Shown here one piece after another: positions 3,999-55,963 of a stretch of DNA of 64,000 nt. Made by a program: the position numbers and the translations under genes. The DNA comes from Desulfomonilia bacterium (lineage in GTDB: Bacteria > Desulfobacterota > Desulfomonilia > UBA1062). The notes beneath the pieces were generated by a model, which saw only the letters and a list, made by a program, of their open reading frames with translations, did not search any database and had not been told where the DNA came from. Location: positions 23,038-87,037 of the forward strand of contig DATCTV010000002.1 of assembly GCA_036567785.1 (NCBI GenBank), written 5' to 3'. How positions within the stretch are numbered: the stretch's first letter is position 1; each line of letters opens with the position of its first letter.

Positions 3999-4008
3999 GG
4001 GAGAATTC

Positions 4009-13353: not shown

Positions 13354-13364
13354 GAGAATGAATT

Positions 13365-14165: not shown

Positions 14166-14337
14166 TGCGAATCTCTGGAACTTTGCATTTCATTGTCGCT
14201 CCTAGTCTCGTCATTGCAGCGTACGTCATGTACGCCTCATTCCTCGACTTCGTCGCTCCTCGAAATGCTTTGTTCCAAAGCTCCGCACATTTTAATAATA
14301 AAACAAGTCTTTAGCTGAATGTTTATGGGAGGGGAAA

Positions 14338-15705: not shown

Positions 15706-15721
15706 TAAAAACAAGGAGTAC

Positions 15722-29495: not shown

Positions 29496-29579
29496 TTATA
29501 TTGCAGTCTTTCATGAGCCGCATCTGAGACAGAGTCATTATCTTCAAAATAATTGAATTTCAGCGTTAAAGGAGATTCC

Positions 29580-30278
29580 GTGCCCAAGATCTCGGATGCA
29601 AGAAGGCAGGAGACACTCGATAAGATCGAACGGTCGGCATCTGAGCTTTTCAGCAAACAGGGATTTCACAACACCCAGGTCATGGACATAGTAAAGGCCG
29701 TGGGCATTTCGGCGGGCACCTTCTATTTATACTTCAAGGACAAGCGCGATCTTTTCAAAAAGATAACCGGCGGCAGTTTCAGAAATTTGCGAGACTATCT
29801 TATAGACCTCAGGCGTCCTGTAAACATATGGGAACGCTCCGAACGGGAACTGAAACTCAAGGAAACATATACGGCTCTATTCGATTACGTGGATTCCAAT
29901 CCTGAACTCATTCTCATGCTTCTCAGGGGAAGCTATGGTGTAGATGAAGATTTTGACGCCAGTTCATGGTTTTCCTTCAACAGCTGGGCGCATGACCTTG
30001 CCGAGGATGTGCAGAACTGGCTTGACCTGGGCATCATATCGGGAATCGATCCCATGATATTCGGTCATGCGGTAGTCGGTATGGCCATGCAGGTCATACA
30101 CAGCTATATCGTGGAAAAACAGTTTACGCGGGAAAAGGCCATAGATGCAATAATCCGCATGAACATGTCCATGTTCGACACCTACATGACCAGTGCGGGC
30201 AGAGACCTTCTCCGAAAGTCCGGTCCGCATGCCGCGGTAGTTGATACCGAAAAGAGTTCCCCTTCCAGCGTGAAATGA
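29580..30278 (+). CDS. TetR-family transcriptional regulator
   Basis: AAAGGAG at 29568-29574, GTG at 29580; the track's ATG at 29553 lacks an RBS. HTH 'FSKQGFHNTQVMDIVKAVGISAGTFYLYFKDKRDLF'. Confidence 0.75.
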   Translation: MPKISDARRQETLDKIERSASELFSKQGFHNTQVMDIVKAVGISAGTFYLYFKDKRDLFKKITGGSFRNLRDYLIDLRRPVNIWERSERELKLKETYTALFDYVDSNPELILMLLRGSYGVDEDFDASSWFSFNSWAHDLAEDVQNWLDLGIISGIDPMIFGHAVVGMAMQVIHSYIVEKQFTREKAIDAIIRMNMSMFDTYMTSAGRDLLRKSGPHAAVVDTEKSSPSSVK

Positions 30279-30324: not shown

Positions 30325-31557
30325 ATGAAAAAAAATCTTGACGGGCTCTTTCTCTTCCCTCAGCAATGGGTGGACGTCGAGGCCAGGCGTTTTGCCGCTA
30401 CCGCCCGGCAATGGGCGGACAAAGAGATTATTTCCAGGCGGCTCGATTATCAGAAGGACTATGATACCCTTTTCACACTCATGCGCAAAAAACTCATGGA
30501 CGATATAGGCTTTGAACGCCTGGTGCTTCCTGAGGAAAACGGGGGATACGGCTGGAACAGCCCTGCAAGCGCTCCCGGCATTCTTACTGTATTCACCGAG
30601 ATAGGCCGTGCTGATGCGGCAATCGGATTCACCGCCGCAGTTAAATATGCGATATTCGCCGTAATATCCATGAAACCCAATATCGACAAGGACCTGTGCG
30701 ACAAACTGGCACCGCTCTACTGCGGGGATACACTCAAGAACATTGCCCTCATACTTCCATCGGCCGGATCAGCAGGAACGGATACACCTCTTTTTCACGG
30801 CCGGTCAATCGGGGCTTCACTGAGACCTTCGGGAGACGGATTCATTCTTAACGGTTCAGCACTCCGTCCTGTCGGGCCAGGCTATGATGCCGATCTCTTC
30901 GGGATTGTGGCAGCGGATACAGGCGGCAAAACATGCCTGGCATTCATTCCTGCCGATTTGAAGGGTGTAATAAAAGATCATCCGATAAAGACCACCGGTC
31001 TCAACGGATTTAAAAATACCGACGTAACCTTCAAAGATGTCAGGATACCCGGGAGCTTGGTTGTCATGCGTAATAGCGCAATAAACGAACTTTACTGTTG
31101 GCTTAACCTCCTCCTTGGGGGCACAAGCCTGGGGGCTACTATGAACTTCTTTGAAATCCTCTCGGACTGGTCCGAAAACAGGACGATAAAGGGAAGTTCG
31201 ATCATGAAGGATAATCCGTTGTGCGCGTCAGTCCTTGCGGCCGTCGCGGATGAAATAGCCTGTGTCCGTCTCAATGCATACAGCCTGGCCCATATCATGG
31301 CCAGCTCGGAAGACATCGGCGGACCTGATGTATATACCTTTGCACAAATGCTTGGCTCACGCATACAGCAGTCCTGCATGAACGCTATAAACAGGGGTAT
31401 GGAACTCATGGGTTCCGCCGGGTATTCCAAAGAATGGCATGTTGAAAAACACTGGCGTGACATAAAGACCATCCAGTCATATCTGTGCGGCACCGGATCG
31501 GATGTGCCGGTCAAGATGGATATCGCCCGTTTCTTCTTTGACTTGAAGGAGGTCTGA
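30325..31557 (+). CDS. Atypical acyl-CoA dehydrogenase-like protein (ACAD fold, divergent)
   Basis: RBS GGGAGG, ATG at 30325. The C-terminal 'GSAGYSKEWHVEKHWRDIKTIQ' matches the ACAD C-terminal helix-domain motif but lacks the usual 'IYEGT'. The N-terminus is unlike classical ACADs. Confidence 0.65.
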   Translation: MKKNLDGLFLFPQQWVDVEARRFAATARQWADKEIISRRLDYQKDYDTLFTLMRKKLMDDIGFERLVLPEENGGYGWNSPASAPGILTVFTEIGRADAAIGFTAAVKYAIFAVISMKPNIDKDLCDKLAPLYCGDTLKNIALILPSAGSAGTDTPLFHGRSIGASLRPSGDGFILNGSALRPVGPGYDADLFGIVAADTGGKTCLAFIPADLKGVIKDHPIKTTGLNGFKNTDVTFKDVRIPGSLVVMRNSAINELYCWLNLLLGGTSLGATMNFFEILSDWSENRTIKGSSIMKDNPLCASVLAAVADEIACVRLNAYSLAHIMASSEDIGGPDVYTFAQMLGSRIQQSCMNAINRGMELMGSAGYSKEWHVEKHWRDIKTIQSYLCGTGSDVPVKMDIARFFFDLKEV

Positions 31558-31559
31558 TT

Positions 31560-32834
31560 ATGCGGCACTTTGATGAATTTTCGGTTTCACTGGAACATGT
31601 ATCGCCGATGGAGAAGCACCTTCGCCGTATCGTGCGAAACTGGGCTGAAAAAGAGGTCATGCCCAACCGCCGCAGATATGACGAAGACTGGAAGGAACAT
31701 ACTATCATCGAACCTGCATTCGACAAGCTCATGGCGGGTCTGGGCATGCAGAAGGCGCTGTTTCCCGAAGAGCTTGGCGGCTGGGGGATAGGACACTCGG
31801 ATTATGTCTTCCGCATCTGTTATGCATTGAGCGAAGAGATCGGGCGTGCCGACACTGCCATTGCAGTAGCCTTCCTTGTGACCCTCTGGCCCCTTACAAC
31901 CATTCTTGTCGAGCCTCATGTCAACATGCGTCTGGCCCGTGAACTTGCACCCATATTCTGCAATGCGAAAAAGGCCGTCTTCTCCGCTCTCACAATGACC
32001 GAACCGCAGGGTGGCGCAGACATAGAAAACATGGGCCTGCTTGGCGGCAGGACGCTTCGCACCACCGCACGTCTTGAAGGCGACGAATGGGTGATAAACG
32101 GCCACAAGCTCTGGCCCACAAACTCCGGGGGCGTCTCAAAGCTCTTCGGGGTTCCATGCACTACAAAACCCGGCTCCAGCGACAAAAACGACTTTGCGAT
32201 CATATTCGTACCGACCGACCTCCCCGGAGTGAGCGAGGGAAACCCCTATGAAAAGGCCGGCATGGCTGCGGACAAGAACAGCGACATCTGGTTCGACAAT
32301 GTCCGCGTCCCGTCATGGTACCGTGCACACGGCCCGGGCCTTGACGCCCAGACCTTTGCCGAAATCATCCCCTGGGGACAGATAGCCAGCATCGGATTCA
32401 TGACCGGGGCCATGCTCAACCTGTACGAAAGGCTCTATGAATTTGTCTCGACCCGCACTTACAATAACCGCCCCCTGAAAGAGAATGACGCCATCGCCGG
32501 GGTCATAGGCCGCATTGCCGGCGACATAGATATATGCCGCATCCTGGGGTATGAAACCGCCTGCATCGGAGACCGCAGAAACAAGGCCTATGGCAGGCCG
32601 ATACACGACGAGGAGGTAATTGCAAAAGTACGCAACATAAAGGACTTCGTCTCTGACAGGACGGTCGAAAACTTCGGCCGCGCAATGGATGTGCTGGGCG
32701 TCTACGGTGCCGATAGGGACTGGGATATTGAGAAGCACTGGCGCGATGTCAAGATCATCCAGCTCTGGATGGGCGGCAAACAACTCTGCCAGATGGAAGC
32801 GGCCCGCTATTATTTCAACTGCGAAACCCTGTGA
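31560..32834 (+). CDS. Atypical acyl-CoA dehydrogenase-like protein, paralog of the previous gene
   Basis: RBS GAAGGAGG, ATG at 31560, 3 nt after the upstream stop. C-terminal 'GVYGADRDWDIEKHWRDVKIIQLWMGG'. Paralogous to 30325-31557. Confidence 0.65.
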   Translation: MRHFDEFSVSLEHVSPMEKHLRRIVRNWAEKEVMPNRRRYDEDWKEHTIIEPAFDKLMAGLGMQKALFPEELGGWGIGHSDYVFRICYALSEEIGRADTAIAVAFLVTLWPLTTILVEPHVNMRLARELAPIFCNAKKAVFSALTMTEPQGGADIENMGLLGGRTLRTTARLEGDEWVINGHKLWPTNSGGVSKLFGVPCTTKPGSSDKNDFAIIFVPTDLPGVSEGNPYEKAGMAADKNSDIWFDNVRVPSWYRAHGPGLDAQTFAEIIPWGQIASIGFMTGAMLNLYERLYEFVSTRTYNNRPLKENDAIAGVIGRIAGDIDICRILGYETACIGDRRNKAYGRPIHDEEVIAKVRNIKDFVSDRTVENFGRAMDVLGVYGADRDWDIEKHWRDVKIIQLWMGGKQLCQMEAARYYFNCETL

Positions 32835-32859: not shown

Positions 32860-33267
32860 ATGTCAGAAGAAAAAAGCCGGTTTGCGGCAGGCAGTATATT
32901 ATCAGAGTTATTGAAGAAGCCTGGATTCAAGGATGATGTAAGGGATGCGCTCAAAAGCATCGACCCGGATGCAGGGCGCGAACTGGTGAGAACCTTTTTA
33001 TGGCAGGATCTGGAATTCAGCCTGGGTCTGATGGGAGGCCTGCCGGCCATAGCCAATACCTTTATCCGGGCTATTGATGAACTCCTTATCGAGATAAATG
33101 AAAAATATCCCATGGAACTCCTTAAAGGCTTTGCAGATTCGCTCATTAAAGATACCGACACCGAATCCCTCGGGCGGGCACTCAGGAATGCCCGCCCCTA
33201 TATTGACGCCCTGGGGCCCATTTTTAAAAAGGCCTGGCAGGACGCACGAGATGGAGAGAGAACATGA
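32860..33267 (+). CDS. Hypothetical alpha-helical protein, paralog family member 1
   Basis: GGAGG at 32850-32854, ATG at 32860; the track's ATG at 32839 lacks an RBS. Shares 'ELVRTFLWQDLEFSLGLMGGLP' with the next gene ('SLVRTILWQDIEVVFGVMGALP'). Confidence 0.5.
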   Translation: MSEEKSRFAAGSILSELLKKPGFKDDVRDALKSIDPDAGRELVRTFLWQDLEFSLGLMGGLPAIANTFIRAIDELLIEINEKYPMELLKGFADSLIKDTDTESLGRALRNARPYIDALGPIFKKAWQDARDGERT

Positions 33268-33881
33268 GCGGAATAATCAAAGAACTTATCAAGAGTCCGT
33301 TTATCAAGGGCATGATCAGGAGAAGGCTTAAGGAAATCACGCCAGAAGAGGCCCGCTCCCTTGTCAGAACGATCCTATGGCAGGACATCGAGGTCGTTTT
33401 CGGTGTAATGGGCGCCCTGCCCTCCTGTATCAATGCCGCAGCAGCAGCCATGGGCACACTTGCTCATGAGCTTAAGGCAAAGGTCTCGCCTGAAATGTCA
33501 AAAGGATTTGCCATGAGCATCATTCAAGACATCGATACAGCCATCATCAAAGACAGCACACATGCATTGGCAGAACTTTCGGGCAGCATAATAGAAGCAT
33601 CGCCCGAACTCAAAAATTTCATAATCGATAAGTTGCCGGGGATAATCGCCACAGGCATAAATTCAACTGCATCCGGAATAAACAAGCTCTGCAAAGAAGA
33701 CCCGGCATTGATTGGCAGCTTTGTCAATTCATTGGCCGGCAGTCTTGACAAGCAGGCTCTGAACGAGGCCACTCTCAATATCACTGAAGCCTTCCTCGAC
33801 ACGGGGCCCGGTCTTGCCGGCTGGACACTGAAGCTCATCAAGCGCCGTGCTTCAAAGCGTTTCAAGCGTACGGGCAAGTAA
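33264..33881 (+). CDS. Hypothetical alpha-helical protein, paralog family member 2
   Basis: ATG at 33264 overlaps the upstream stop (ATGA); RBS GGAGAGA. 205 aa, no recognisable domain. Ends with a basic tail 'KLIKRRASKRFKRTGK'. Confidence 0.55.
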   Translation: MSGIIKELIKSPFIKGMIRRRLKEITPEEARSLVRTILWQDIEVVFGVMGALPSCINAAAAAMGTLAHELKAKVSPEMSKGFAMSIIQDIDTAIIKDSTHALAELSGSIIEASPELKNFIIDKLPGIIATGINSTASGINKLCKEDPALIGSFVNSLAGSLDKQALNEATLNITEAFLDTGPGLAGWTLKLIKRRASKRFKRTGK

Positions 33882-36360: not shown

Positions 36361-36603
36361 ATGTGTCAGAACGACAGGGAAGAAATTGCAATGGAAGTCC
36401 TTTGCGGCATCGCCATGGATGACGCCAGGATGGTTGCGGAACGCCAGCGTGCGATCGATGCGCTCACTCTGTTTCAGGCGGATGCGCTTAAGTCTCTCGA
36501 ATATATCGCACGCCGTACCGACTTGGATATCCTGAGAGAGCGCGCAAGGCTCTACATCGATAGAATAAAATCAGGGGCCGTCCTCAGCATGACCTCGGTT
36601 TGA
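36361..36603 (+). CDS. Small hypothetical protein (80 aa) inside the operon
   Basis: Strong RBS TAAGGAGG at 36347-36354, ATG at 36361. No homology recognised. Confidence 0.4.
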   Translation: MCQNDREEIAMEVLCGIAMDDARMVAERQRAIDALTLFQADALKSLEYIARRTDLDILRERARLYIDRIKSGAVLSMTSV

Positions 36604-38805: not shown

Positions 38806-39590
38806 TGTTTGCTGCAGGCTGTGATGTCGGCTCATTAAGCGCGAAAGCGGTCATCATGAAGGATGATGAAATACTCGCCACCGAGGTGATATTTTCCAAG
38901 CCTGACCCGGGTGACTCGGCCCGGACAGTCATGGAGAATGCCCTCATCAAGGCGGGTATTTCTTTAAACGATATCGGATACTGCATCGGCACCGGCTATG
39001 GAAGAAACTCCATTCCCTTTGCCGACAGCGTCGAGTCCGAAATCACGTGTCACGGAAAAGGGGCGCAGTGGCTCATGCCTGACGTGCGCATGGTGATTGA
39101 CATAGGCGGTCAGGATGCCAAGGCAATCAGGCTGGACGATACCGGAAAGGTGGTCCGTTTCGCATATAATGACCGCTGCGCATCGGGTACTGGCAGGTTC
39201 CTGGAGGTGATGGCGGCTGCAATGGGGATAAGGCTCGAAGACATGGGTATGATATCCGCGCAGGGAAGGAACCCTGTCGCCATATCAAATCAGTGCGTGG
39301 TCTTTGCCGAAACAGAGATCATATCACTTGTAAATGCCGGCAAGGACCTGGCCGACATAGTGAGCGGCCTGCACAAGGCACTGGCCCACAGGGTGGCGTC
39401 GCTTGCCCATGGAGTGGAACTCGATAAACGACTCACCATGACCGGTGGTGTGGCTAAAAACCGGGGCATGTTTCTTGCCCTGCAGGAGGCGCTCGGGGTG
39501 GATATCACCCCCGTTGAAGCCGACCCGCAGATTATCGGCGCCCTCGGAGCGGCTGTTCTGGCACGTACGAAAGTGAACGGGGCCGGATAG
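38805..39590 (+). CDS. BadF/BadG/BcrA/BcrD-type ATPase, second tandem paralog
   Basis: RBS GGGAGGCGG, ATG at 38805. 'AAGCDVGSLSAKAVIM', 'DIGGQDAKA', 'NDRCASGTGRFLE'. Paralogous to the previous gene; two different ATPase subunits, as in class I BCR. Confidence 0.8.
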   Translation: MFAAGCDVGSLSAKAVIMKDDEILATEVIFSKPDPGDSARTVMENALIKAGISLNDIGYCIGTGYGRNSIPFADSVESEITCHGKGAQWLMPDVRMVIDIGGQDAKAIRLDDTGKVVRFAYNDRCASGTGRFLEVMAAAMGIRLEDMGMISAQGRNPVAISNQCVVFAETEIISLVNAGKDLADIVSGLHKALAHRVASLAHGVELDKRLTMTGGVAKNRGMFLALQEALGVDITPVEADPQIIGALGAAVLARTKVNGAG

Positions 39591-40336
39591 TGTCTGAGAT
39601 GGAACTCTTTACGGATACCATCGCAGCTGTAAGGTCATTTGTGGCGCAGTCATCTGCCATAAAATCCTGGAAAGAGGACTCCTCATGCCTTTGGCCTTCC
39701 GGCGGAAGCCGCAACATTGTCCTCAAAGACGACACCGGGCTCGAACTTGGCAGTCCTGAAATGGATTCCGTGAGCTGCCTTTTGTGGACACAGGACAAAA
39801 GCCTGGTTGAAGACGGCAGGATAACCGTTATCGGGCGTGATTTTCCTGAATGCAAAGATGAAAGCCTGCCCTTCGGCAAGGTAGTCATAGCAGGAGTCGA
39901 AGGCTTCAACGAGGATAACGCCTATGAGAGGCACAAGGATATGGATTTTCTGCGTTATGATCTTGACCTCAAGGGCTTCATGCTGCGTGCAGCTTCACAG
40001 TTCATGCGCGAATGGTGCCGCATCAGCAGGGATGCGCTGCAAAAAGGCTTCTCTGCACTTATACTGGGTTCGGCCCTGATGCGGCTCTTTCGAGCGCAAC
40101 CATTTGTCAAATCGGTAGAGGTCATCTACCTTACTTCCAGCACCGAAGATATACTCAGGCTCAGGGAAATAACGACGCCTGCGGAAATGATCATTGCCGC
40201 AATGAACAAGATGGCCGTTGAGATGGATTTCGAATGCGACAGCTGCGATTACAGGACTGTCTGCGATGATGCGACCCAGCTCAAGAGCATGCGCGAGAGC
40301 CTGATGAAAAAATCAGTGGAGGCGGCCCGTGGCTGA
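39590..40336 (+). CDS. Hypothetical protein with C-terminal Cys cluster (CDSCDYRTVCDD)
   Basis: GTG at 39590 overlaps the upstream TAG; an alternative ATG lies at 39599. 248 aa; possible metal-binding motif 'DFECDSCDYRTVCDD'. Confidence 0.5.
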   Translation: MSEMELFTDTIAAVRSFVAQSSAIKSWKEDSSCLWPSGGSRNIVLKDDTGLELGSPEMDSVSCLLWTQDKSLVEDGRITVIGRDFPECKDESLPFGKVVIAGVEGFNEDNAYERHKDMDFLRYDLDLKGFMLRAASQFMREWCRISRDALQKGFSALILGSALMRLFRAQPFVKSVEVIYLTSSTEDILRLREITTPAEMIIAAMNKMAVEMDFECDSCDYRTVCDDATQLKSMRESLMKKSVEAARG

Positions 40337-41090
40337 AACCGGAATAATAGCGCTTTGCGGCAAGGGCGGCGTGGGCAAGACTTCGGTATCGGCCATTATG
40401 GTGAAGCTTCTGGCGAAAAAGCATCACGCAAAGATACTCGCAATCGACGCCGACCCGGCAGTGGGTCTGGCCACAGCACTTGGCGTAAGTGTAATGAGGA
40501 CGGTGAATGATATCCGCAATGATCTCATCTCGAACCTTAAAAACGGCGGTAAGGACCGCGAGACTATAAGAAATCTCGATTACGAGGTGTTCGGTGCCCT
40601 CAAGGAGCAGGACGGTTACGCCCTGCTTGCCATAGGAAGACCCGAGGATGAAGGGTGTTTCTGCCGCGTGAATTCCCTTCTGAAAGACATCATCCGTGAC
40701 CTTGCAGGAAATTTCGATATTGTCCTCATCGACGGCGAGGCCGGGATAGAACAGATCAACCGCCGGGTAATGAAGACTGTCGATCATCTGGTACTTGTTT
40801 CTGATACTTCGGCAAAAGGCATCAATGTGGCCAATACCGTTGCTTCGGTTGCCAAAGACAGAAACGCGGTTGATTTCAGCGATATCGGCCTCATCCTAAA
40901 CAGGGTGAGAAGCGAAACGGAAGTCATGGATATCGGCACCAGGACCAGCCTCAGCATACTGGGCGCAATCGGTGAAGACGAGTTTATCAGGGATTACGAT
41001 TTCAGAGGCATCCCCCTTGCCGGCATACCTGATACCTCGCCCTCGGTGACTGCGGTTAACGGCATCCTTGAAAAAATGCACATTATTTGA
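40329..41090 (+). CDS. CooC/AcsF-like MinD-superfamily P-loop ATPase (metallocentre maturation-type)
   Basis: GTG at 40329. Deviant Walker A 'CGKGGVGKTS' right at the N-terminus, and a 'GCFC' Cys-X-Cys motif at about residue 108, as in the nickel-insertion ATPase CooC. Confidence 0.65.
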   Translation: MAETGIIALCGKGGVGKTSVSAIMVKLLAKKHHAKILAIDADPAVGLATALGVSVMRTVNDIRNDLISNLKNGGKDRETIRNLDYEVFGALKEQDGYALLAIGRPEDEGCFCRVNSLLKDIIRDLAGNFDIVLIDGEAGIEQINRRVMKTVDHLVLVSDTSAKGINVANTVASVAKDRNAVDFSDIGLILNRVRSETEVMDIGTRTSLSILGAIGEDEFIRDYDFRGIPLAGIPDTSPSVTAVNGILEKMHII

Positions 41091-41103
41091 AGAGGAGCCT
41101 TTC

Positions 41104-42237
41104 ATGGCAGAAAAGACCTCAATACTGAAAGAATTCGATAAGCTCCTTGAGACCCCTTTGAACCATCTGGTCGAACAGGCTGCTTCGAACGGCCGCATTC
41201 CTATTGGATATTCCTGCTCCTTTGTGCCCGAAGCACTTCTGATGGCGGACAGGCTTTTCCCGGTGAGGCTTCAGGCCCCGGGCATTGCGGGCACCGAGAT
41301 TGCTGACAATTATCTTTCAAGCCTGACATGCTCTTACACACGAAGCCTTCTCGAATTCGCGATTGACGGCCGCTATGACCTTATAAAGGGATGGGTTTTT
41401 GTGCCTTCATGCGCACACATGCAGCGTCTTTACGACAACCTGGATTATCTCACAAAACCCGCATTCAATCACATCCTCGATGTCCCGCGCAAGGTGAACG
41501 AAGCGGCGATTGCATGGCAGGCCGATGAACTGAGGATACTCTCCCGGCGGCTTGCATCACATTTCGATATCGACATGAGCGACGCCGCGCTTATGAAGGC
41601 AATCGCTGAGTGGAACGAATTTTCAGCAGAAATCGAATCGATTGGTGAACTCAGGAAAAACCCTGAACCTCCCCTGACCGGAGCGGAGTTCCACCGCATC
41701 GTAATGGCGTCTCTTGCATCACCCAGGGATTTGATAATGCCTTACATAAGAGAACTGCGCACCGAAATCGAAAAACGGACCGAGCGGAAAAAATACCGGG
41801 CCAGACTGATGCTGGCAGGCTCTCACCTGCATGATCCTGAATTCATAAGGATCATCGAATCGCAGGGAGGCCTCGTCGTTGCCGACAGGATATGCACAGG
41901 CTCAATCCCCGGGCTCATGCCTGTCATATCCGATGGTGATCCCGTAAGGGCTCTTGCCGAACACACTTTCAGAAAAACCCTTTGTCCCCGGATGATGGAG
42001 AATTTCGACCTCAGGCTTAAGAATATTGTCGAAACCGTTAAAGAATACAGGGTGGACGGTGTAGTAATCGAGATAATCAAGTTCTGCGACCTCTGGGGGG
42101 TTGATTCCATGCCTCTTGTAAGGTCACTGCGTGCACAGGGTATTCCCGTGCTCAAACTCGAGCGCGAATACCGTCAGGGAGGAGAAGGACAACTGCGCAC
42201 CAGGGTGCAGGCCTTCATCGAAAGCATGGGAAAATGA
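41104..42237 (+). CDS. Second HgdB/BcrC-family subunit
   Basis: GAGGAG at 41092-41097, ATG at 41104; the track starts at 41068 without an RBS. 'IPIGYSCSFVPEALLMADRLFPVRLQ' parallels 35215-36348. C-terminal 'QLRTRVQAFIESMGK'. Confidence 0.7.
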   Translation: MAEKTSILKEFDKLLETPLNHLVEQAASNGRIPIGYSCSFVPEALLMADRLFPVRLQAPGIAGTEIADNYLSSLTCSYTRSLLEFAIDGRYDLIKGWVFVPSCAHMQRLYDNLDYLTKPAFNHILDVPRKVNEAAIAWQADELRILSRRLASHFDIDMSDAALMKAIAEWNEFSAEIESIGELRKNPEPPLTGAEFHRIVMASLASPRDLIMPYIRELRTEIEKRTERKKYRARLMLAGSHLHDPEFIRIIESQGGLVVADRICTGSIPGLMPVISDGDPVRALAEHTFRKTLCPRMMENFDLRLKNIVETVKEYRVDGVVIEIIKFCDLWGVDSMPLVRSLRAQGIPVLKLEREYRQGGEGQLRTRVQAFIESMGK

Positions 42238-45988: not shown

Positions 45989-46059
45989 ACTCGTTCAGAT
46001 GAACTTGACTTTAGACAAGAAATCCCATATTGATAAGCATTATCAATATGGAGAATTTT

Positions 46060-46566
46060 ATGAAAGCAAAATCCGTCAAGGAAACTTCATTGTCAATGTC
46101 ACACCTCATGACCCCGCAGGATGCCAATATCGCGGGCAATGTTCACGGAGGCGTCATAATGAAACTTATCGACGATGCAGCCGGTACTGTGGCTGCAAGG
46201 CATTCGACAGGAAATGCTGTTACGGCATCAATCGACAGGCTGAGCTTCTTCAGCCCTGTTTTCATAGGGAACCTCCTTACATTAAGGGCAAGCATCAACC
46301 ATGTCGGCAGGACTTCAATGGAAATAGGAGTAAGGGTCGAGGCTGAAGACATCTTCACCGGTGTTGTCAGACATACAGCATCGGCTTATCTCACTTTTGT
46401 GGCTCTGGATGAAAATTTGAAACCGAAAGAAATCCCGGGGTTGATACTGGAAAACGATAACGAGAACAGACGCTACCGCGAAGCCATTGCAAGAAGACAA
46501 AACCGTCTGAATGAAAGAAAAAAGGAGGAAGCCTGCCAGAAAGGCCCGGATTCATGCAGTCTATGA
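46060..46566 (+). CDS. Acyl-CoA thioesterase (hotdog fold, YciA-like)
   Basis: ATG at 46060 is 6 nt after GGAG. '[28 protein letters not shown]' is the hotdog thioesterase active-site region. Confidence 0.7.
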
Positions 46567-46917
46567 TTTTTTTTCAAGTTTTTTAAGACCCCATGCCTGG
46601 CGCGATTTGTCGCATTTCTCCTCGGGCAGACCGTCCGCCCATGAAAAAGGTATATCCCGGCAGACCTGTGGACGTCTCTCATAAATAGTGCAGCGGACCG
46701 CCTTGCCTATTTCTCCTTCAAGTGCAATGCATCTGGGTTCCGGGCGGTTCGTGCCTTTCATAACGGCCCTGAAATCGTTCAGCTTTTCTGTAAGCCCTGC
46801 AGGCACACCGCCCTCTTTTGCATCGTCGCATTCACCCCAGTAAAAAGATACCCTGAAATATGCACAGCAAGCACCGCATGCAAGACACGGATTATATTCT
46901 TCTCTTTTTTCTTTCAT
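46561..46917 (-). CDS. YkgJ-family (CxxCxxCC) zinc/iron-chelating Cys-cluster protein
   Basis: '[19 protein letters not shown]' matches the UPF0153/YkgJ CxxCxxCC motif. Convergent with the thioesterase, overlapping it by 6 nt. Confidence 0.65.
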
Positions 46918-47059: not shown

Positions 47060-48454
47060 ATGAAGACTAGAATCGGCAGTATCAATGCACTGTACCCGAT
47101 GCCTGTCGTTCTTGTAGGAGCCCTTGTCGGCGGTAAACCAAACTTTATCACCGTCGCACATGTAGGGATATTGAATGCCAGTGCTCCCCACCTCGTATCC
47201 ATAGGTCTGGGAAAAGTACATTTTACCAACAAGGGCATAAAGGAAAACAGGACATTCAGTATAAACATCCCTTCAGAGGATATGATGCGCAAGGTCGACT
47301 ACGCCGGTCTTGTTTCAGGGAAAAAAACCGACAAATCAAATCTCTTTGACATAACCACGGGTGAACTCGGAACCGCGCCCATGATAAACGAATGCCCGGT
47401 ATCCATGGAGTGCAAGGTGGTAAACATTATAGAGCTCCCCACTCATGATGTTTTCATTGGAGAAATAACATCTACATATTCCGATGAATCGGTAATGAAA
47501 GGCACCCGCATAGACATCGGCAAGATACGCCCCATTCTTTTCGATATGGCAAGTCGTATGTATTATTCACTGGGACGTCCCATCGGCAATTGCTGGGATG
47601 AAAAGAACAGAACCCTTTTCGAGGAAGAGCTTCAGAACAGGGGTGAAGAAAAAACATACAAATGGAACGCACATGATTATGCCAGAAATTCCTCGGTCCA
47701 GAAGGCGTTCGGGGTCGAATTGATCGAGAAGATGCAGTTGAAAGGCAATGAATCCATCCTTGATATCGGCTGCGGCGACGGCAAGCTCACCGAAATGATC
47801 GCCGAAAGGATACCTGACGGTCATGTAATCGGCATAGACAATTCCCCGGACATGATCAGCTATGCGAAGGAAACCTATTCAAACATCCGTAACCTCAAGT
47901 TCATGCAGGTCGATGCCCAGAAGATGCTCTTTGACGATACCTTCGATATAGCTTTTTCAAATGCGGCGCTTCACTGGGTGAAAGACCACAAGGCGCTTCT
48001 TGCAGGTGTCAAGAAAGGGCTCAAACCTGGCGGCAGGATCCTTTTCCAGATGGGTGGCAGGGGCAATGTAAACGAAATCATGGCGGCGATTACAGAGACC
48101 ATATCATTGCCTGAATGGAAGGAATATTTCAAGGATACAGGCTCCCCTTATAATTTTTACGGGCCTGACGAGTACCGCATGCTTCTCAAACATGCCGGTC
48201 TTGAACCGGTCAGGATGGAGCTTATCCCCAAAGAAATGAAGTTTGATTCAAGAGACGGCCTTGTAAGCTGGGTTAGGACTACCTGTCTCCCCTACACTCT
48301 TATCGTCCCTGAAGACAGGAGAGACGCCTTTATCGAAGGCATCGTTGAACTGTATCTGTCAAAAAATCCGGCCGATATTGACGGAACCATTCACCTGAAG
48401 GCCGTAAGACTTGAGATAGAAGCGACAAAACCGATTTCCAACGGCTTGATTTGA
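47060..48454 (+). CDS. Fusion of flavin-reductase-like FMN-binding domain and class I SAM-dependent methyltransferase (Tam-like)
   Basis: RBS AGGAGG, ATG at 47060. The N-terminal approximately 190 aa have a flavin-reductase-like split-barrel signature ('LYPMPVVLVGALVGGKPNFITVAHVG'). The C-terminal domain 'ILDIGCGDGKLTEMIAE...AFSNAALHWV' is a SAM methyltransferase motif I/post-I. Confidence 0.65.
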   Translation: MKTRIGSINALYPMPVVLVGALVGGKPNFITVAHVGILNASAPHLVSIGLGKVHFTNKGIKENRTFSINIPSEDMMRKVDYAGLVSGKKTDKSNLFDITTGELGTAPMINECPVSMECKVVNIIELPTHDVFIGEITSTYSDESVMKGTRIDIGKIRPILFDMASRMYYSLGRPIGNCWDEKNRTLFEEELQNRGEEKTYKWNAHDYARNSSVQKAFGVELIEKMQLKGNESILDIGCGDGKLTEMIAERIPDGHVIGIDNSPDMISYAKETYSNIRNLKFMQVDAQKMLFDDTFDIAFSNAALHWVKDHKALLAGVKKGLKPGGRILFQMGGRGNVNEIMAAITETISLPEWKEYFKDTGSPYNFYGPDEYRMLLKHAGLEPVRMELIPKEMKFDSRDGLVSWVRTTCLPYTLIVPEDRRDAFIEGIVELYLSKNPADIDGTIHLKAVRLEIEATKPISNGLI

Positions 48455-51483: not shown

Positions 51484-52137
51484 ATGGAAAGAAAATTCCA
51501 CAAGGTCACGTTTGACAGAATACCCGAGGAAAAGCGCGAGCGCATACTGGCCGCTTCGCTTATTGAATTTGCGGCTAACGGATTCAAAGGCACAAATGTC
51601 AGCACCATAGCCAGAGCGGCAGGCATAAGCATAGGCGCGGTTTACAAGTATTTCCCGTCAAAGGAAGACCTCTTCATGACCGTTATCGATTACGGTTATC
51701 AGGACCTCGATAAAGTGCTCCTTGAGATCGTAGGCCATGAAGGCGACATCTTTGATAAAATTGAACGCATCCTAAGGGCCGCAATAAATTATTCAAGGGA
51801 AAAGCCCCAGGTGATACAGGTTTATCTGCACTGTACAACCGAAGGGCTGCCGGAGCTCGCCAAAAAAATGTCCCAGAAGATAGAAACCATATCCGCCAGA
51901 TATTACAGAGAGCTTGTCGCAGAGGCTTCCCGAAGCGGGGTCATAGCACCAGATATCGATGAAGGGGCCGCAGCCTTTTTCCTTGACAGCCTGTTTCTTA
52001 TCTTCCAGTTTTCCTATGCCTGTACATACTATAACGAGCGCATGCAGATCTTTGCAGGCCTCAGCGCCGATGACGACGAAACCATGATAAGCCGCTTCAT
52101 GCAGTTCGTAAAAAAAGGCCTTGGCGCGAAGTTTTGA
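51484..52137 (+). CDS. TetR-family transcriptional regulator
   Basis: ATG at 51484. HTH 'RILAASLIEFAANGFKGTNVSTIARAAGISIGAVYKYFPSKEDLF'. Confidence 0.75.
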   Translation: MERKFHKVTFDRIPEEKRERILAASLIEFAANGFKGTNVSTIARAAGISIGAVYKYFPSKEDLFMTVIDYGYQDLDKVLLEIVGHEGDIFDKIERILRAAINYSREKPQVIQVYLHCTTEGLPELAKKMSQKIETISARYYRELVAEASRSGVIAPDIDEGAAAFFLDSLFLIFQFSYACTYYNERMQIFAGLSADDDETMISRFMQFVKKGLGAKF

Positions 52138-52265
52138 ATATCCTTGTTTCAGCCGACCTGGACAATATGGCAACTGATATAGTCATTCGTACGACACTTT
52201 CTTTAATGGAAATTTCTGAATATTTTCTGGGTTCAGCAAGAATTTTTAAATTATAATTTTTCCGG

Positions 52266-53156
52266 TCAGGGTTTAACTGCCATAATCTTTAACCTGTGGC
52301 CCAGCAATGTATGTCTTACAACCCGATCTGTTACCTTCTCAATAGGCTTTATAATCTTATCTTGAAGCAGTTCAAACTTTGTCCTGTCTTTGTTATGATG
52401 CTTCGGAGCCAAATGAGTTCCTTTTGTCTGTATACTTATGATTTCAAAACCGGCTTCATTAAGCATTCTCTTTAGGGTCTCAGGCGAAAAAAGGTATATA
52501 TGGTCATCCCCTCCGAAATATTGCCATTTTTTACCGCACATCTTCACCGAGATTGAATCGATATTCGGTGTGGACAGGACAAACAGCCCTCCAGGCCTAA
52601 GAATTCTGAAGATTTCTGAAACAACACGTTTCGGATCGGACAGATGCTCAATGACATTATTGAGTCTTGCTACATCAAAATGATTTTCCTGCAGATAGGT
52701 ATCCTCGACAGGCTTGGTATGAACAGGGAAAAATTTACGGGCGTATTCTGCAATGGTTTCAACTATTTCAATCCCTTCGGGGTAATTCCAGCCTGTATCT
52801 CTTGCTGCTTTGAGAAATCCACCTGTTCCGCATCCGATATCGATGATATGCCCTTTTGTTTTATATTTCAGATATCCTCTGGCTTCCCTTTGAAGTCTGA
52901 GCATTCTTTTGCCGGAGTAATCAATTTGCGCAGTTTCATTAATCCCGTCATGCTCGCTGATGAAATTATTCCCAATTATGTTCTGGTTATTGATTATATC
53001 ATCAAGCCTGGGATTAACGTAAACCAGCCCGCAGATTTTACACTTTACATGACTGAACCCGTCTTTTTCAAAAACAAGCTCAGTATTGTCAGCCCCACAT
53101 AGATTGCACCTGACATATGACATGTTTGATTCAGACTCTTTGTTATGTAAATCCAT
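52266..53156 (-). CDS. Class I SAM-dependent methyltransferase with N-terminal zinc-ribbon
   Basis: 'CNLCGADN...CKICGLVY' is a 4-Cys ribbon. 'IIDIGCGTGGFLKAARD' is motif I; 'LRPGGLFVLSTPN' is motif III. Confidence 0.7.
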   Translation of the reverse strand: MDLHNKESESNMSYVRCNLCGADNTELVFEKDGFSHVKCKICGLVYVNPRLDDIINNQNIIGNNFISEHDGINETAQIDYSGKRMLRLQREARGYLKYKTKGHIIDIGCGTGGFLKAARDTGWNYPEGIEIVETIAEYARKFFPVHTKPVEDTYLQENHFDVARLNNVIEHLSDPKRVVSEIFRILRPGGLFVLSTPNIDSISVKMCGKKWQYFGGDDHIYLFSPETLKRMLNEAGFEIISIQTKGTHLAPKHHNKDRTKFELLQDKIIKPIEKVTDRVVRHTLLGHRLKIMAVKP

Positions 53157-53342
53157 TTAGTATCTATCCTTTATTGAATTAATTTGATTATAATAATTAT
53201 GATCAATAGTATTAATTTCTTAACACTTATCTCATTGAAAATATACCTAATTATAAAAAGGGATTGGCTTCTATATGTTAAAAAAGAAGCCAATCCTCAA
53301 AATCTTTAAAAAATATTTGTTGAAAAAACTTTAATACAAATA

Positions 53343-54548
53343 CTAGTATTCCTTGATAGGATTACACTTTAACAAATGTCCAGCGTTATCAACATAAGAA
53401 CTATGCCCTGTACCTCCTGCAAAGCCTGTAATAACGTTTCCTGGTGGACAACATATTGTTTGAAATATATTAGCATTGGTGTCAATGATAGTAGAATTTT
53501 CATAATCAATATAAAGATTATAGTTTGATGTGAAATACCTTGATAGTATATCGTGTGGTAAATTGTACCAACGACTGTGACCAAAACCACCAGACAAGCC
53601 AATCATAACATAATTATAAGGCACAAGAGTAAGATCCCATGTATCAACGCCAGTACTTTGTCTATAGGGATCATATTTGAGAGATATGTTTATATCAGGT
53701 CTGTTAGGTGATACTATTTTACAGCATTTAATTTTATGTGGAGAATTATCTCCATCACAATGCCCCATTCCTTGTCTGATTCCTGATAGAACATATCCAT
53801 CAGGACACTTGGTCATTTCATCTGTATCAACCCCAGTATCAATCTCAACACAATCAGAATATACAAAATCAGGTTGAGGTGTCTTGATAAAAATCTCAGA
53901 CTGACCTCCTGTCCATTTTAATGATAAACGAGGATTCTTGGTGGGGTCCATTGGTGTTTTCCAAATTACTTCACCAAGACTTACTGTTACATTGTAGGGT
54001 TTTATTGTAATTCCCAAATGTGGGAATATGATTTTATCGTCTTGCACAATTGATGCTTTCATATCATCCTTATGTTGAGCATCATACAAATCAAAATTAA
54101 AACCTTGAAATTTTACAGGGTTAGGATATGCATATGGAATAACTGTATCAGGTTCTGTTAAACAAATCCATGGTTTTATTTCAGGAGGGTCGCAACGATT
54201 AGGAAATCGATTGTATCTTATTAGCTGTACTTGTTGTTTTGTCCTTTCTGCAACAAAATCAACAGAACACATAAATTCCATGCCTACAGCCATTGTTGTT
54301 TCATTCAATAATTTCCTTAAATCTTCTGCAATTTGTTTAGATAATGTGGTTCCCATTTTTTCAAATCGATCAATAGCTTTAATCAAAGTATCTTCCCATT
54401 GATCAGGCCATCTATCAAGAGTAGCAATAAGATCATTTAATGCATCCAACTCCCCGCATGCTGTTAATGAAAATCCTGTTACAATAACCATTGAAACAAT
54501 AATAAACTTTGAAATTCCAGATTTAATTTTATTCAAACTCAACATCAT
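53343..54548 (-). CDS. Hypothetical lipoprotein with three internal 'G-x-G-H-S/C' repeats, in a low-GC islet
   Basis: Lipobox 'FSLTACGE'. The repeats are 'YVLSGIRQGMGHCDGDN', 'YVMIGLSGGFGHSRWYN', 'NVITGFAGGTGHSSYVDN'. GC is clearly lower than the flanking sequence, and the flanking intergenic regions are extremely AT-rich. Confidence 0.5.
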   Translation of the reverse strand: MMLSLNKIKSGISKFIIVSMVIVTGFSLTACGELDALNDLIATLDRWPDQWEDTLIKAIDRFEKMGTTLSKQIAEDLRKLLNETTMAVGMEFMCSVDFVAERTKQQVQLIRYNRFPNRCDPPEIKPWICLTEPDTVIPYAYPNPVKFQGFNFDLYDAQHKDDMKASIVQDDKIIFPHLGITIKPYNVTVSLGEVIWKTPMDPTKNPRLSLKWTGGQSEIFIKTPQPDFVYSDCVEIDTGVDTDEMTKCPDGYVLSGIRQGMGHCDGDNSPHKIKCCKIVSPNRPDINISLKYDPYRQSTGVDTWDLTLVPYNYVMIGLSGGFGHSRWYNLPHDILSRYFTSNYNLYIDYENSTIIDTNANIFQTICCPPGNVITGFAGGTGHSSYVDNAGHLLKCNPIKEY

Positions 54549-54698
54549 ATGAAACCTCCTTAATTATATTTTATTTTATATCATAATATTAATAACATAT
54601 AATTATTTTTTATTCTATGCTAAAATCAATTAAAAGATTTATTTCTAAACATATTTATCTATCTGGTTTTAAATCTATGAACCTAACAATAAACCAGC

Positions 54699-55718
54699 CT
54701 ACCAATCTTTTACGATTACGCCTATTCCCAGGCTGTTGTCGAAATGGTCATAATCGATCAGGCTCTGACCATATCCGGCAAAGTATTGCACATAGCCGTT
54801 TATGGAGTGAACCAGTGGAAAACTCAGATCCAGTTCGAGGCCGCTTCTGTTGTCATTAAGCTTCAGGTTGTTGCGAAACATGAGACCGACGGCCCAGTCT
54901 TTGTAGTGATAACCCATAACTATCTCGCCATGCCCCAGATAGTCGATTATGTCGGGATTGTCGTCATCGTCTTCATTCTCTGGAATACGCAGCCATGTTT
55001 TGAGCACCAGGTCGAAAGGCCCGCGTTCGAATCCGAAATTGGCGACTATGCGGTTCCAGCTTCTGGAAAGAGACCCGCCCAGCCCGTTGGACTGGTGATC
55101 GAAACCCACCTGGATGAATCTGTTCCTCATGATGCCAAAAATATCCGCATCCATCCTGTAGTTTATTAGAATCTCGGGCTCGTAATTTGTCTCAAGAAAA
55201 GGACATGACTCGCTTGTGTTGTAAAGTTGCCAGAAGCTCAACTGCGTATAGCCGAACCAGAGGTCAGCCTTACTCTTGAACATGCTTTCCCAGAGCTTGA
55301 CCTTGAGGCTCAACTGGAATTTAACCTCTTCGTTCTGCATGTCGAAATTCGGAAAGGCCTTTTTATAGGGTTCGGTGTTCGGATTGAAGTTGTAGTCCAG
55401 AAGGAGAATGTAGTTTGCCCTGTGGGTCATTATTGCAAAGGGATTTTTTCTGCTCTCCTCATCGAGCTGCCATTTTTTCGAGAGATAGCTTATTTGTTTT
55501 TGGGACTCTTGCGTCATGGCTGTTGCTTTCTCACTGTCTGCAGACACCTCCGGCTTGAGCCTGGCTTTTTCATCATAGCAGTTAAGCCTTGCCTTATCAT
55601 CAGTGATTGCCGCACAGGAATCGGGGTTCTCATCAGCCATGACGAGTACCGGCAACCCCGTCACCATAAGCAGGCATGTCAGAAAGATTGTCCTTGAAAG
55701 ATTTTTGCAACGGATCAT
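54699..55718 (-). CDS. pldA: Outer-membrane phospholipase A (OMPLA)
   Basis: ATG (reverse complement) at 55718, with GAGAGGG RBS. Signal peptide present. 'GFDHQSNGLGGSLSRSWNRI' contains the catalytic His-x-Ser-Asn triad motif of PldA. Confidence 0.75.
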   Translation of the reverse strand: MIRCKNLSRTIFLTCLLMVTGLPVLVMADENPDSCAAITDDKARLNCYDEKARLKPEVSADSEKATAMTQESQKQISYLSKKWQLDEESRKNPFAIMTHRANYILLLDYNFNPNTEPYKKAFPNFDMQNEEVKFQLSLKVKLWESMFKSKADLWFGYTQLSFWQLYNTSESCPFLETNYEPEILINYRMDADIFGIMRNRFIQVGFDHQSNGLGGSLSRSWNRIVANFGFERGPFDLVLKTWLRIPENEDDDDNPDIIDYLGHGEIVMGYHYKDWAVGLMFRNNLKLNDNRSGLELDLSFPLVHSINGYVQYFAGYGQSLIDYDHFDNSLGIGVIVKDW

Positions 55719-55917
55719 TTCGCCCTCTCATCAATCGTCCCTGCAAAAGGAACAGGCTCAAAAATTAATAAAGTAATACCTGTTACCCTGCGTATAACAA
55801 TTCGATTAACAGGCAAAGAGGGGGCTTTTCAAGGTCAATATCAAAAATAGCGGTGACAGAACGAATTTACATCAATCAGAGAAATTACAAACTTTTTAAA
55901 ACAAGGACTGTAAGAAA

Positions 55918-55952
55918 AGTAGCTGGAGACCTTTTTCAGGGTCTCCAGCTAC
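55918..55952 (-). terminator. Rho-independent terminator downstream of the 55964-58063 gene
   Basis: Perfect 14-bp stem AGTAGCTGGAGACC / GGTCTCCAGCTACT with a 7-nt loop. On the minus strand it is followed by TTTTCTT. Sits 12 nt after the stop codon. Confidence 0.65.
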
Positions 55953-55963
55953 TGTTGAACTTT

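Follow-up and report, generated by a model that had tools for sequence, protein, structure and literature searches.

The 64,000-nt stretch analysed here, referred to as the window, comes from a Desulfomonilia bacterium (assembly GCA_036567785.1, contig DATCTV010000002.1, positions 23,038 to 87,037) and contains one closely packed plus-strand gene array that spans 29.5-46.6 kb. Two adjacent genes within this array are the subject of the present analysis: one encodes a P-loop ATPase resembling the CooC/AcsF nickel insertases (CooCL), and the gene directly upstream encodes a protein resembling the middle domain of acetyl-CoA synthase (ACS), here called CdhCL. The pair is positioned among genes for subunits related to benzoyl-CoA reductase (BCR), 2-hydroxyacyl-CoA dehydratase (HAD) and double-cubane cluster proteins (DCCP). 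The CdhCL stop codon (TGA, 40334-40336) overlaps the GTG start of CooCL at 40329 by 8 nt, with GGAGG at 40318-40322 upstream of that start. On the 5′ side, the stop of the preceding BcrAD-type ATPase gene (ATPase b; TAG, 39588-39590) lies 8 nt from the CdhCL ATG at 39599, and on the 3′ side the CooCL stop (41088-41090) is followed after 13 nt by the ATG at 41104 of a BzdN-like gene, N2, with AGGAG at 41092-41096. This ATG is most likely the N2 start, rather than the TTG at 41068 that opens the raw open reading frame (ORF). The first-pass annotation of this DNA had described both genes as translationally coupled to their flanking genes; the junctions are indeed tight, with minor corrections to the starts.

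CooCL begins with MAETGIIALCGKGGVGKTS and carries the deviant Walker A motif GKGGVGKT at residues 11-18, DADP at 40-43, the Cys-x-Cys motif C110-F-C112 (within EGCFCRVNS, 108-116) and a Walker B region reading LIDGEAGIEQ; the GKGGVGKT and CFC motifs reported earlier are both found at these positions. A deviant Walker A motif of the form GKGGxGK[ST], with the signature lysine in the second position, defines the family (PMC9164220, PMC6006190). The closest sequence in the PDB is CooC1 of Carboxydothermus hydrogenoformans (3kje; E 4e-16, 62.5 bits, residues 7-250 against 3-249), and the two proteins align in register at GKGGVGKT, D(A/G)DP, C-x-C-R-x-NS and the Walker B stretch. The CFC of CooCL is placed on the CYC of 3kje, which corresponds to Cys112/Cys114, the Zn or Ni site at the CooC1 dimer interface (PMC6006190). 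Both features that mark the CooC/AcsF family (COG3640), the deviant Walker A and a Cys-x-Cys pair at the metal-site position, are thus present. Lower-scoring PDB relatives are MinD, at up to 44.1 bits, and ArsA, at 32.5 bits. No CooC-specific model exists in Pfam or NCBIfam, and the general family models return only CbiA/AAA_31 or MinD matches, the NCBIfam MinD models being the top named ones at 57 and 50 bits, far below their cut-offs. These generic matches are what an alternative could draw on in which CooCL is a MinD/ParA-type positioning or assembly ATPase without a metal role and its cysteines are structural; we regard it as exceedingly unlikely because the CXC pair is invariant at the CooC1 metal site and because both the CooC1 and the AcsF-type scores exceed those of MinD.

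Models for iron-sulfur carriers and reductases of the same fold class give lower scores still. The Mrp/NBP35/ApbC family model (PF10609) reaches 19.2 bits (cut-off 27.1) over residues 6-42 only, the MrpORP model 17.6 bits (cut-off 450), Fer4_NifH (PF00142) 27.3 bits (cut-off 25) and the BchL model of DPOR 32 bits. CooCL could be envisaged as a NifH/BchL-like electron-transfer protein or an Mrp/NBP35-like Fe-S carrier, with a bridging [4Fe-4S] cluster on the CxC motifs and electrons or clusters passed to CdhCL. Membership in the SIMIBI/MinD fold class, the weak Fer4_NifH and BchL matches, and the fact that the surrounding system is otherwise built on low-potential, ATP-driven electron transfer are all compatible with such a role. 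It is nevertheless very unlikely, since the similarity to CooC and AcsF is far stronger, the Mrp-type scores are below cut-off, and the CXC motif of CooC1 binds a single Zn or Ni ion (PMC6006190). Close homologs of CooCL are named "CO dehydrogenase maturation factor" by the Joint Genome Institute (JGI).

The subtype was assessed against CooC1 and a single reference genome, a replicon of Acetoanaerobium noterae (locus L141) that provided the sole CooC-type match in the plasmid collection. This locus is a complete Wood-Ljungdahl cluster in which carbon monoxide dehydrogenase (CODH) is followed by one CooC paralog and a second paralog lies directly 5′ of acsD-acsC-acsE-acsB. Since acsF always clusters with acsBCDE in 14 acetogens (PMC5039349), the second paralog occupies the acsF position. 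By blastp, CooCL scores 138 bits (32.5% identity) against the acsF-position paralog, 80.5 against the CODH-side CooC and 72.8 against CooC1, and the medians over 73 orthologs are 133, 82 and 71 bits, respectively, with every one of the 73 scoring higher to the acsF-position paralog than to the CODH-side CooC. Two ATPases of 40% identity that accompany distant CdhCL family members show the same preference and keep GCYC, and the motif GC[FY]C.VN is shared between CooCL and the acsF-position paralog. On this one reference genome and CooC1 we therefore assign CooCL to the CooC family as an AcsF-like member, distinct from MinD, ParA, ArsA and Mrp, in agreement with the placement proposed at first. 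GKGGVGKT, DADP and C110/C112 are invariant in the 73 orthologs, which share 48-82% identity, indicating that these motifs are selected rather than present by chance. An additional cysteine directly before the P-loop, C10 (40356-40358, in ALCGKGGVGKT), is found in 72 of the 73; CooC1, the A. noterae paralogs and one distant partner have Ala or Val at this position, and C10 is not kept in the distant partners.

The upstream reading frame (39590-40336, 248 codons from a GTG) contains FECDSCDYRTVCDD, the Cys motif of which is followed by a further 23 residues. The motif had been reported as the C-terminus of a 248-residue protein; the motif itself is there, at an internal position, and the protein is probably the shorter one of 245 residues starting at ATG 39599, since its homologs begin at MELF. 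Its earlier description as a generic Cys-cluster protein has to be replaced, because four independent lines point to an ACS origin. First, Pfam PF03598 (CdhC) matches residues 43-184 (E 2.3e-12), and over this stretch the ACS models of NCBIfam reach 36-50 bits, their cut-offs being 355-809. Second, its sequence matches in the PDB are the middle domains of CdhC and AcsB. Third, an AlphaFold2 (AF2) model (predicted local distance difference test, pLDDT, 85; predicted template-modelling score, pTM, 0.83) gives 23 Foldseek matches to the PDB at E<=0.001, all of them ACS, the best at 1.4e-10 (template-modelling scores 0.55-0.59). Fourth, hhalign sets positions 45-222 of the family alignment on 310-490 of A. 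noterae AcsB with 91% probability and pairs DFECDSC with FYSCNLC of AcsB. Both hhalign and MAFFT place the CxxC of CdhCL on C485/C488 of AcsB, the first two cubane ligands, and MAFFT sets the third cysteine opposite a later cubane cysteine. In A. noterae AcsB, C485, C488, C497, C507 and C574-G-C576, which we take to be the A-cluster ligands, have the exact A-cluster ligand spacing. No A3 domain was found in CdhCL, there being neither a PF19436 match nor a Cys-Gly-Cys motif. We thus read CdhCL as a truncated ACS that keeps the middle, CoA-binding A2 domain, the linker helix and three cysteines left over from the cubane site, with no A1 and almost no A3.

Of 79 orthologs (39-81% identity), 78 have the three C-terminal cysteines (CxxCx5C), the exception being a contig-end fragment; among full-length family members that represent 50%-identity clusters the count is 118 of 121, and this conservation points to selection on the motif. 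A profile search covering 1.84 billion cluster representatives gives 656 relatives at E<=0.001 and 167 clusters (50% identity) at E<=1e-30, and nearly all of the 150 matches listed are 225-270 residues long. These proteins form a sizeable, distinct and unnamed family of at least 167 such clusters. The closest database copy, at 100% identity, is labelled as from a Desulfomonilia metagenome-assembled genome (MAG), and NCBI annotates the protein as hypothetical. A candidate fourth cluster ligand, C140 (C143 in the 248-residue ORF), was rejected as a family feature, the residue being Cys in 41 and Ser in 37 of the 79 orthologs.

In the structure of Clostridium autoethanogenum ACS with acetyl-CoA the ligand lies mainly on A2, with its adenine stacked on Trp405 (bioRxiv 10.1101/2024.08.05.606187). 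The numbering of A. noterae AcsB coincides with that structure at Arg383, His386, Gly399 and Trp405, and Trp405/Arg407 of the acetyl-CoA binding surface align with W139/R141 of CdhCL; where ACS has its acetyl-transfer residues, Arg383 and His386, the alignment shows Asp and Leu in CdhCL. All 79 orthologs have W139, and of the two only R141 is conserved across the wider family. CdhCL might be imagined as a new kind of CoA-thioester-binding metallo-subunit, in which the A2 surface (W139, R141) would hold the CoA so that the acyl end faced an open-site [4Fe-4S] cluster on the three cysteines, perhaps completed by a metal donated by, or shared with, the CxC motif of the ATPase. We consider this quite unlikely; if true, such a subunit would join organometallic or thioester chemistry of the ACS type with an ATP-driven reductase of the BCR type, within an acyl-CoA pathway not yet described.

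Conservation of the pair was examined in a one-genome-per-species scan seeded with CdhCL, which returned at least 95 carriers; the counts below are from 80 loci, all in MAGs, belonging to Desulfomonilia, Syntrophales/Smithellaceae, Desulfobacterales, Spirochaetota/Leptospirales and one Bacillota. Among the 76 loci with room downstream, the AcsF-like ATPase gene is immediately next to the CdhCL gene in 66 and within 2 kb in 73. On the upstream side, 60 of the 76 loci have ATPase b next to CdhCL, 11 have a ferredoxin-domain gene there and two the BzdO-like gene O1; the ferredoxin-domain gene, a homolog of the one found further downstream in the window, takes this place directly 5′ of CdhCL in Desulfobacterales. 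A gene for a helical protein of about 432 residues lies upstream in 55 of the 56 loci with at least 6.5 kb there, and the contexts of three CooCL homologs of 67-70% identity show the same array. The conserved order is helical protein, BzdN-like subunit, BzdO-like subunit, two BcrAD ATPases, CdhCL and CooCL. A separate metagenome scan seeded with the helical protein recovered the pair in 16 of 17 loci with at least 7 kb downstream. The second module, N2-O2 with a third BcrAD ATPase (ATPase c), follows in 34 of the 56 loci with at least 5 kb downstream and is absent from the other 22 while the pair stays, and a position between two modules was therefore rejected as a defining trait. The linkage to HGD-D and BcrAD genes foreseen in the first-pass annotation is borne out across phyla, whereas its picture of a pair embedded between two enzyme modules is better replaced by one in which the pair forms the 3′ end of module 1.

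Six contexts of distant family members were also examined, and the pair is kept in four: as BcrAD-BcrAD-CdhCL-CooCL with HGD-D genes 3-6 kb upstream, as HGD-D-CdhCL-CooCL, as BcrAD-HGD-D-CdhCL followed by the start of a GKGG ATPase, and as CdhCL followed by the start of such an ATPase. Taken with the optional module 2, these contexts suggest that the pair belongs to module 1 and to BCR/HAD-type systems generally. One might still suppose that the adjacency is non-functional, the pair serving a canonical CODH/ACS elsewhere in the genome or being a decaying remnant of the Wood-Ljungdahl pathway. Both genes are of Wood-Ljungdahl descent, and many of the host lineages (Desulfobacterales, Syntrophales) commonly have that pathway. 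Against this stand the overlapping stop and start codons, the synteny in 73 of 76 loci from Desulfomonilia, Syntrophales, Desulfobacterales, Spirochaetota and a Bacillota MAG, a strongly purifying conservation (70% mean column identity over 20 sequences) and the size and distinctness of the family. Neither the cluster described here nor the gene lists of the other loci inspected contain a Ni-CODH or a full ACS (Prismane/CODH, ACS_CODH_B_C), and we judge this explanation to be highly improbable.

In one sub-lineage (L007 10731-12571, and also L014, L019 and L050) two genes with overlapping stop and start codons are inserted between the CdhCL and ATPase genes, encoding a URO-D/MtaA-like methyltransferase (388 residues) and a B12-binding corrinoid protein (225 residues, DPHDLG motif). 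The insertion is suggestive because a corrinoid protein is the usual methyl donor of ACS, and it would fit a methyl-transfer link in the case of a CoA-thioester-binding subunit. Distant B12-binding homologs (~25% identity) also lie 9-10 kb downstream on the opposite strand in L002/L003 and L022, accompanied in L002/L003 by RACo and URO-D genes.

Table. Genes of the array, with coordinates in the window.
Feature	Position	Strand	Basis or remark
TetR regulator	29553-30278	+	Pfam
Acyl-CoA-dehydrogenase-like genes (two)	30325-31557, 31560-32834	+	Pfam
Small helical proteins, 142 and 205 aa	32839-33267, 33264-33881	+	no Pfam match
All-helical protein "unk443", ~432 aa	33920-35218	+	first gene of conserved core; no Pfam match
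N1, BzdN-like HGD-D subunit, 377 aa	35215-36348	+	PF06050, E 1e-84
80-aa protein between N1 and O1	36361-36603	+	no Pfam match
O1, BzdO-like HGD-D subunit, 469 aa	36617-38026	+	PF06050, E 1e-38
ATPase a, BcrAD/BzdQ-type (BcrAD/BadFG), 260 aa	38023-38805	+	PF01869, E 6e-58; TIGR00241, 236.8 bits
ATPase b, BcrAD/BzdQ-type (BcrAD/BadFG), 261 aa	38805-39590	+	PF01869, E 1e-57
CdhCL, ACS-like protein, 245 aa (248 aa from GTG 39590)	39599-40336	+	PF03598
CooCL, AcsF-like CooC-family P-loop ATPase, 253 aa, GTG start	40329-41090	+	CooC1 homology
N2, second BzdN-like HGD-D subunit, 377 aa from ATG 41104	41104-42237	+	PF06050, E 4.5e-84; module 2
Protein with C-terminal 2x[4Fe-4S] ferredoxin domain, ~437 aa	42278-43591	+	Fer4 family matches, residues 336-400
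ATPase c, third BcrAD-type ATPase, 265 aa	43632-44429	+	PF01869, E 1.3e-55; module 2
O2, second BzdO-like HGD-D subunit, 519 aa	44429-45988	+	PF06050, E 1.6e-57; module 2
4HBT thioesterase	46030-46566	+	

The genes that flank the pair belong to the HGD-D and BcrAD families by Pfam and NCBIfam, as first described. N1 aligns to BzdN (8s02_B) with E 9e-40 and N2 with E 9.5e-30. C32/70/97/264/294/328 of N1, which correspond to BzdN Cys36/73/100/263/293/327, are present in 56-57 of 57 sequences, and the six cysteines at the [8Fe-9S] ligand positions of N2 in 42-43 of 43. O1 gives weak PDB matches to DCCP and BzdO (26-34 bits), with C135/C164/C415 opposite BzdO Cys95/128/380, and these three [4Fe-4S]-position cysteines are conserved in 61-62 of 62 sequences; O2 matches BzdO with E 5.6e-7 and keeps the three [4Fe-4S] cysteines. 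Module 1 therefore has the BzdNOPQ layout of a six-Cys N subunit, a three-Cys O subunit and two distinct BcrAD ATPases. Its scores are far below the equivalog cut-offs (bzdN 148 bits against 454, bzdO 23 against 449, bzdQ 199 against 380), N1 also staying below cut-off with the double_cubane model at 170 bits, which places the system in a separate clade of the BCR/HAD/DCCP superfamily. No heterometal-site motif is recognisable in N1, O1 or the ATPases, though additional conserved residues are present (N1 C75, C106 and C349; O1 C125, C307 and H311).

Among the remaining genes of the array, the 80-residue protein keeps its place between N1 and O1 in many loci. The helical ~432-residue protein has 138 homologs, all annotated as hypothetical, one of which (P0288) is fused to an SCP2 sterol-carrier domain. 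Its AF2 model is all-alpha (pLDDT 67), and Foldseek found nothing in the PDB at E<=0.001; the linkage of its gene to the BCR-like core is as tight as that of the CdhCL/CooCL pair. Synteny of the genes upstream of the helical protein, from the TetR regulator through the two small helical proteins, is frequent in Desulfomonilia and Syntrophales loci. The raw ORF of the ferredoxin-domain protein (from 42131) overlaps the end of N2 by ~100 nt, but a length of 436 residues in the homologs makes ATG 42278 the probable start; Pfam matches nothing in the ~300 residues at the N-terminus of this protein. The acyl-CoA-dehydrogenase-like genes, the TetR regulator, the thioesterase and the helical proteins with their SCP2-fused homolog lead us to infer only that the substrate would be an acyl-CoA and may be hydrophobic.

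With this enzyme core beside it, the pair could instead be a maturation machine for the core itself, acting on the [8Fe-9S] cluster of N1, the aqua-[4Fe-4S] cluster of O1 or the bridging cluster of the BcrAD ATPases. CdhCL would then be only a scaffold or adaptor, and the ATPase would fuse or insert clusters by analogy with NifH, whose part in nitrogenase maturation Merrouch et al. cite as a precedent for a double-function maturase (PMC6006190). That N1 retains all six double-cubane cysteines, that the pair is the conserved 3′ end of the module 1 operon, and that the unit in distant relatives is reduced to BcrAD-BcrAD-CdhCL-CooCL are in keeping with this possibility. However, BzdNO carrying [8Fe-9S] and [4Fe-4S]-OH2 has been made in E. 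coli from a bzdNO plasmid alone (PMC11971306), for which reason a role in double-cubane assembly is not specifically supported; E. coli has a DCCP-type protein of its own, YjiM (PMC7317905). The literature on characterised BCR, HAD and DCCP systems reports no such factors, and N2, which is likewise a six-Cys subunit, has no second pair, module 2 being absent from many loci in which the pair stays. Maturation of the core is on balance unlikely, and the dedicated double-cubane maturation factor proposed in the first-pass annotation finds no positive support.

We tentatively favour a different role, at odds somewhat short of even, in which an AcsF-ACS couple was co-opted as a unit and CooCL serves its ACS-derived partner, which in turn works with the BCR-like enzyme. 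The partner is an ACS homolog and the ATPase is AcsF-like, so the two genes have the appearance of such a couple, with CdhCL as the possible first client. By homology, the MinD-class ATPase would dimerise on nucleotide binding, with a metal held at the interface by the Cys-x-Cys motif of each subunit, while CdhCL would be the remainder of an ACS that has lost A1 and nearly the whole of A3. ATP-driven loading or remodelling by CooCL is predicted to place a metal centre on the three-Cys site of CdhCL, which might be a [4Fe-4S] cluster with one open iron or a Ni or Fe ion. Once loaded, CdhCL could act as an extra metallo-subunit or docking adaptor of the BzdNOPQ-like ATP-driven enzyme, positioned either for electron transfer to the two BcrAD ATPases or for binding of the CoA part of the substrate.

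Several observations weigh against this co-opted couple. The Cys-Gly-Cys nickel ligands are missing from CdhCL, and no more than three of its cysteines are invariant, C140 being no universal fourth ligand (Cys in 41/79, Ser in 37/79), and the Cys region of the AF2 model is of low confidence (pLDDT 54-65). The CoA-stacking Trp is invariant inside the orthologous group only and not in the wider family. Locus L116, the one exception among the 17 loci found with the helical protein, has an intact array of helical protein, N1, 80-residue protein, O1 and ATPases a and b with no CdhCL gene, and only a 32-residue fragment of the AcsF-like ATPase (15401-15496, 72% identity) is left there, indicating that the pair was lost naturally. 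Three further loci, L035, L048 and L068, are without the ATPase, its position in L035 being held by an ADP-forming acyl-CoA-synthetase-like gene and a radical-SAM-like gene (SAM, S-adenosylmethionine), and two of the six distant CdhCL members have no adjacent ATPase. These losses show that the pair is not strictly needed in every locus, and it may be dispensable or replaceable. On sequence evidence, CdhCL is one candidate client.

Several other features of the window lie outside the array. Just 3′ of the cluster are a gene for a small CxxCxxCC (PF03692) protein (46561-46917, minus strand) and one for a flavin-reductase-like domain fused to a SAM methyltransferase domain (47060-48454, 464 residues); both occupy the same place in L001, and matches to the fusion are likewise at this position in L005 and L017. 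Two glycyl-radical enzymes (PFL-like and Gly_radical domains) are encoded at 3808-6585 and 10021-12399, beside two CoA-transferase subunits, an MmgE/PrpD protein and an acyl-CoA dehydrogenase (12418-16891), and upstream of them are a DUF2961 gene and a GFO/IDH/MocA-peptidase M24 fusion. This region may be another anaerobic catabolic cluster. At 52000-56000, a minus-strand stretch with a low GC content (0.37-0.40, against ~0.50 elsewhere) encodes a methyltransferase, a 401-residue protein without a Pfam match and a phospholipase A1, and was possibly acquired horizontally.

To our knowledge, the only role known for CooC/AcsF ATPases is the insertion of nickel into CODH and ACS, and ACS domains are known only from the Wood-Ljungdahl and acetoclastic machineries. 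A full-text literature search found no paper in which CooC, AcsF or a fragment of ACS is linked to BCR, HAD or DCCP enzymes, in line with what had been supposed at the outset, and in a survey of CODH contexts from 2026 CooC figures solely as a CODH maturase (PMC13056359). New here, as judged from the homologies described, would be a metallochaperone ATPase in a new enzymatic context and a new ACS-derived partner family. The CooC/AcsF and ACS lineages meet as a conserved, translationally coupled pair inside operons of ATP-driven radical or low-potential reductases of the BCR/HAD/DCCP superfamily. If the pair matures or forms a metal centre, some BCR-type enzymes either need a dedicated metallochaperone or carry an extra metal site derived from ACS, and either outcome would be new for both fields. 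Beyond the pair, the analysis draws attention to an entire enzyme system, as yet uncharacterised, that occurs commonly in anaerobic digesters, peat and sediments.

NifH, in its role in nitrogenase P-cluster maturation, offers an analogy only, that of a SIMIBI-class ATPase dimer acting on paired cubane clusters; it carries its own [4Fe-4S] cluster on other Cys positions, and its homology with CooCL is at the level of fold class (27 bits to PF00142). The neighbouring genes share the four-part layout of class I BCR BzdNOPQ and of DCCP with its reductase DCCP-R, yet the window proteins score far below equivalog level and O1 is very divergent. The helical 432-residue protein, the 80-residue protein, CdhCL and the AcsF-like ATPase are partners undescribed in BCR, HAD and DCCP systems. 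Relative to AcsB/CdhC, CdhCL has the A2 fold, sequence homology over ~170 residues, the counterparts of Trp405/Arg407 and the first CxxC. It differs in having CxxCx5C where ACS has CxxCx8Cx9C and in lacking A1, A3 and the Cys-Gly-Cys motif, and by these features we conclude that it is not itself an ACS. CooC1 of C. hydrogenoformans (3kje/3kji), which functions in nickel insertion into the CODH C-cluster, is the best solved relative of CooCL, with aligned motifs and a similar length (254 against 253 residues); their identity is ~27%, the score is 72.8 bits against 138 for the AcsF-type reference, and no CODH gene lies nearby here. AcsF is a CooC-type ATPase for nickel insertion into the ACS A-cluster (Gregg et al. 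2016, cited in PMC10134865). Unlike the AcsF system, the partner in the window is without the nickel-binding part of ACS, the operon has no gene for CODH, the corrinoid iron-sulfur protein (CFeSP) or a full ACS, and the context is of BCR/HAD type. CooCL nonetheless resembles AcsF in family and subtype, in the deviant Walker A and CXC motifs, and in a gene that overlaps one derived from ACS.

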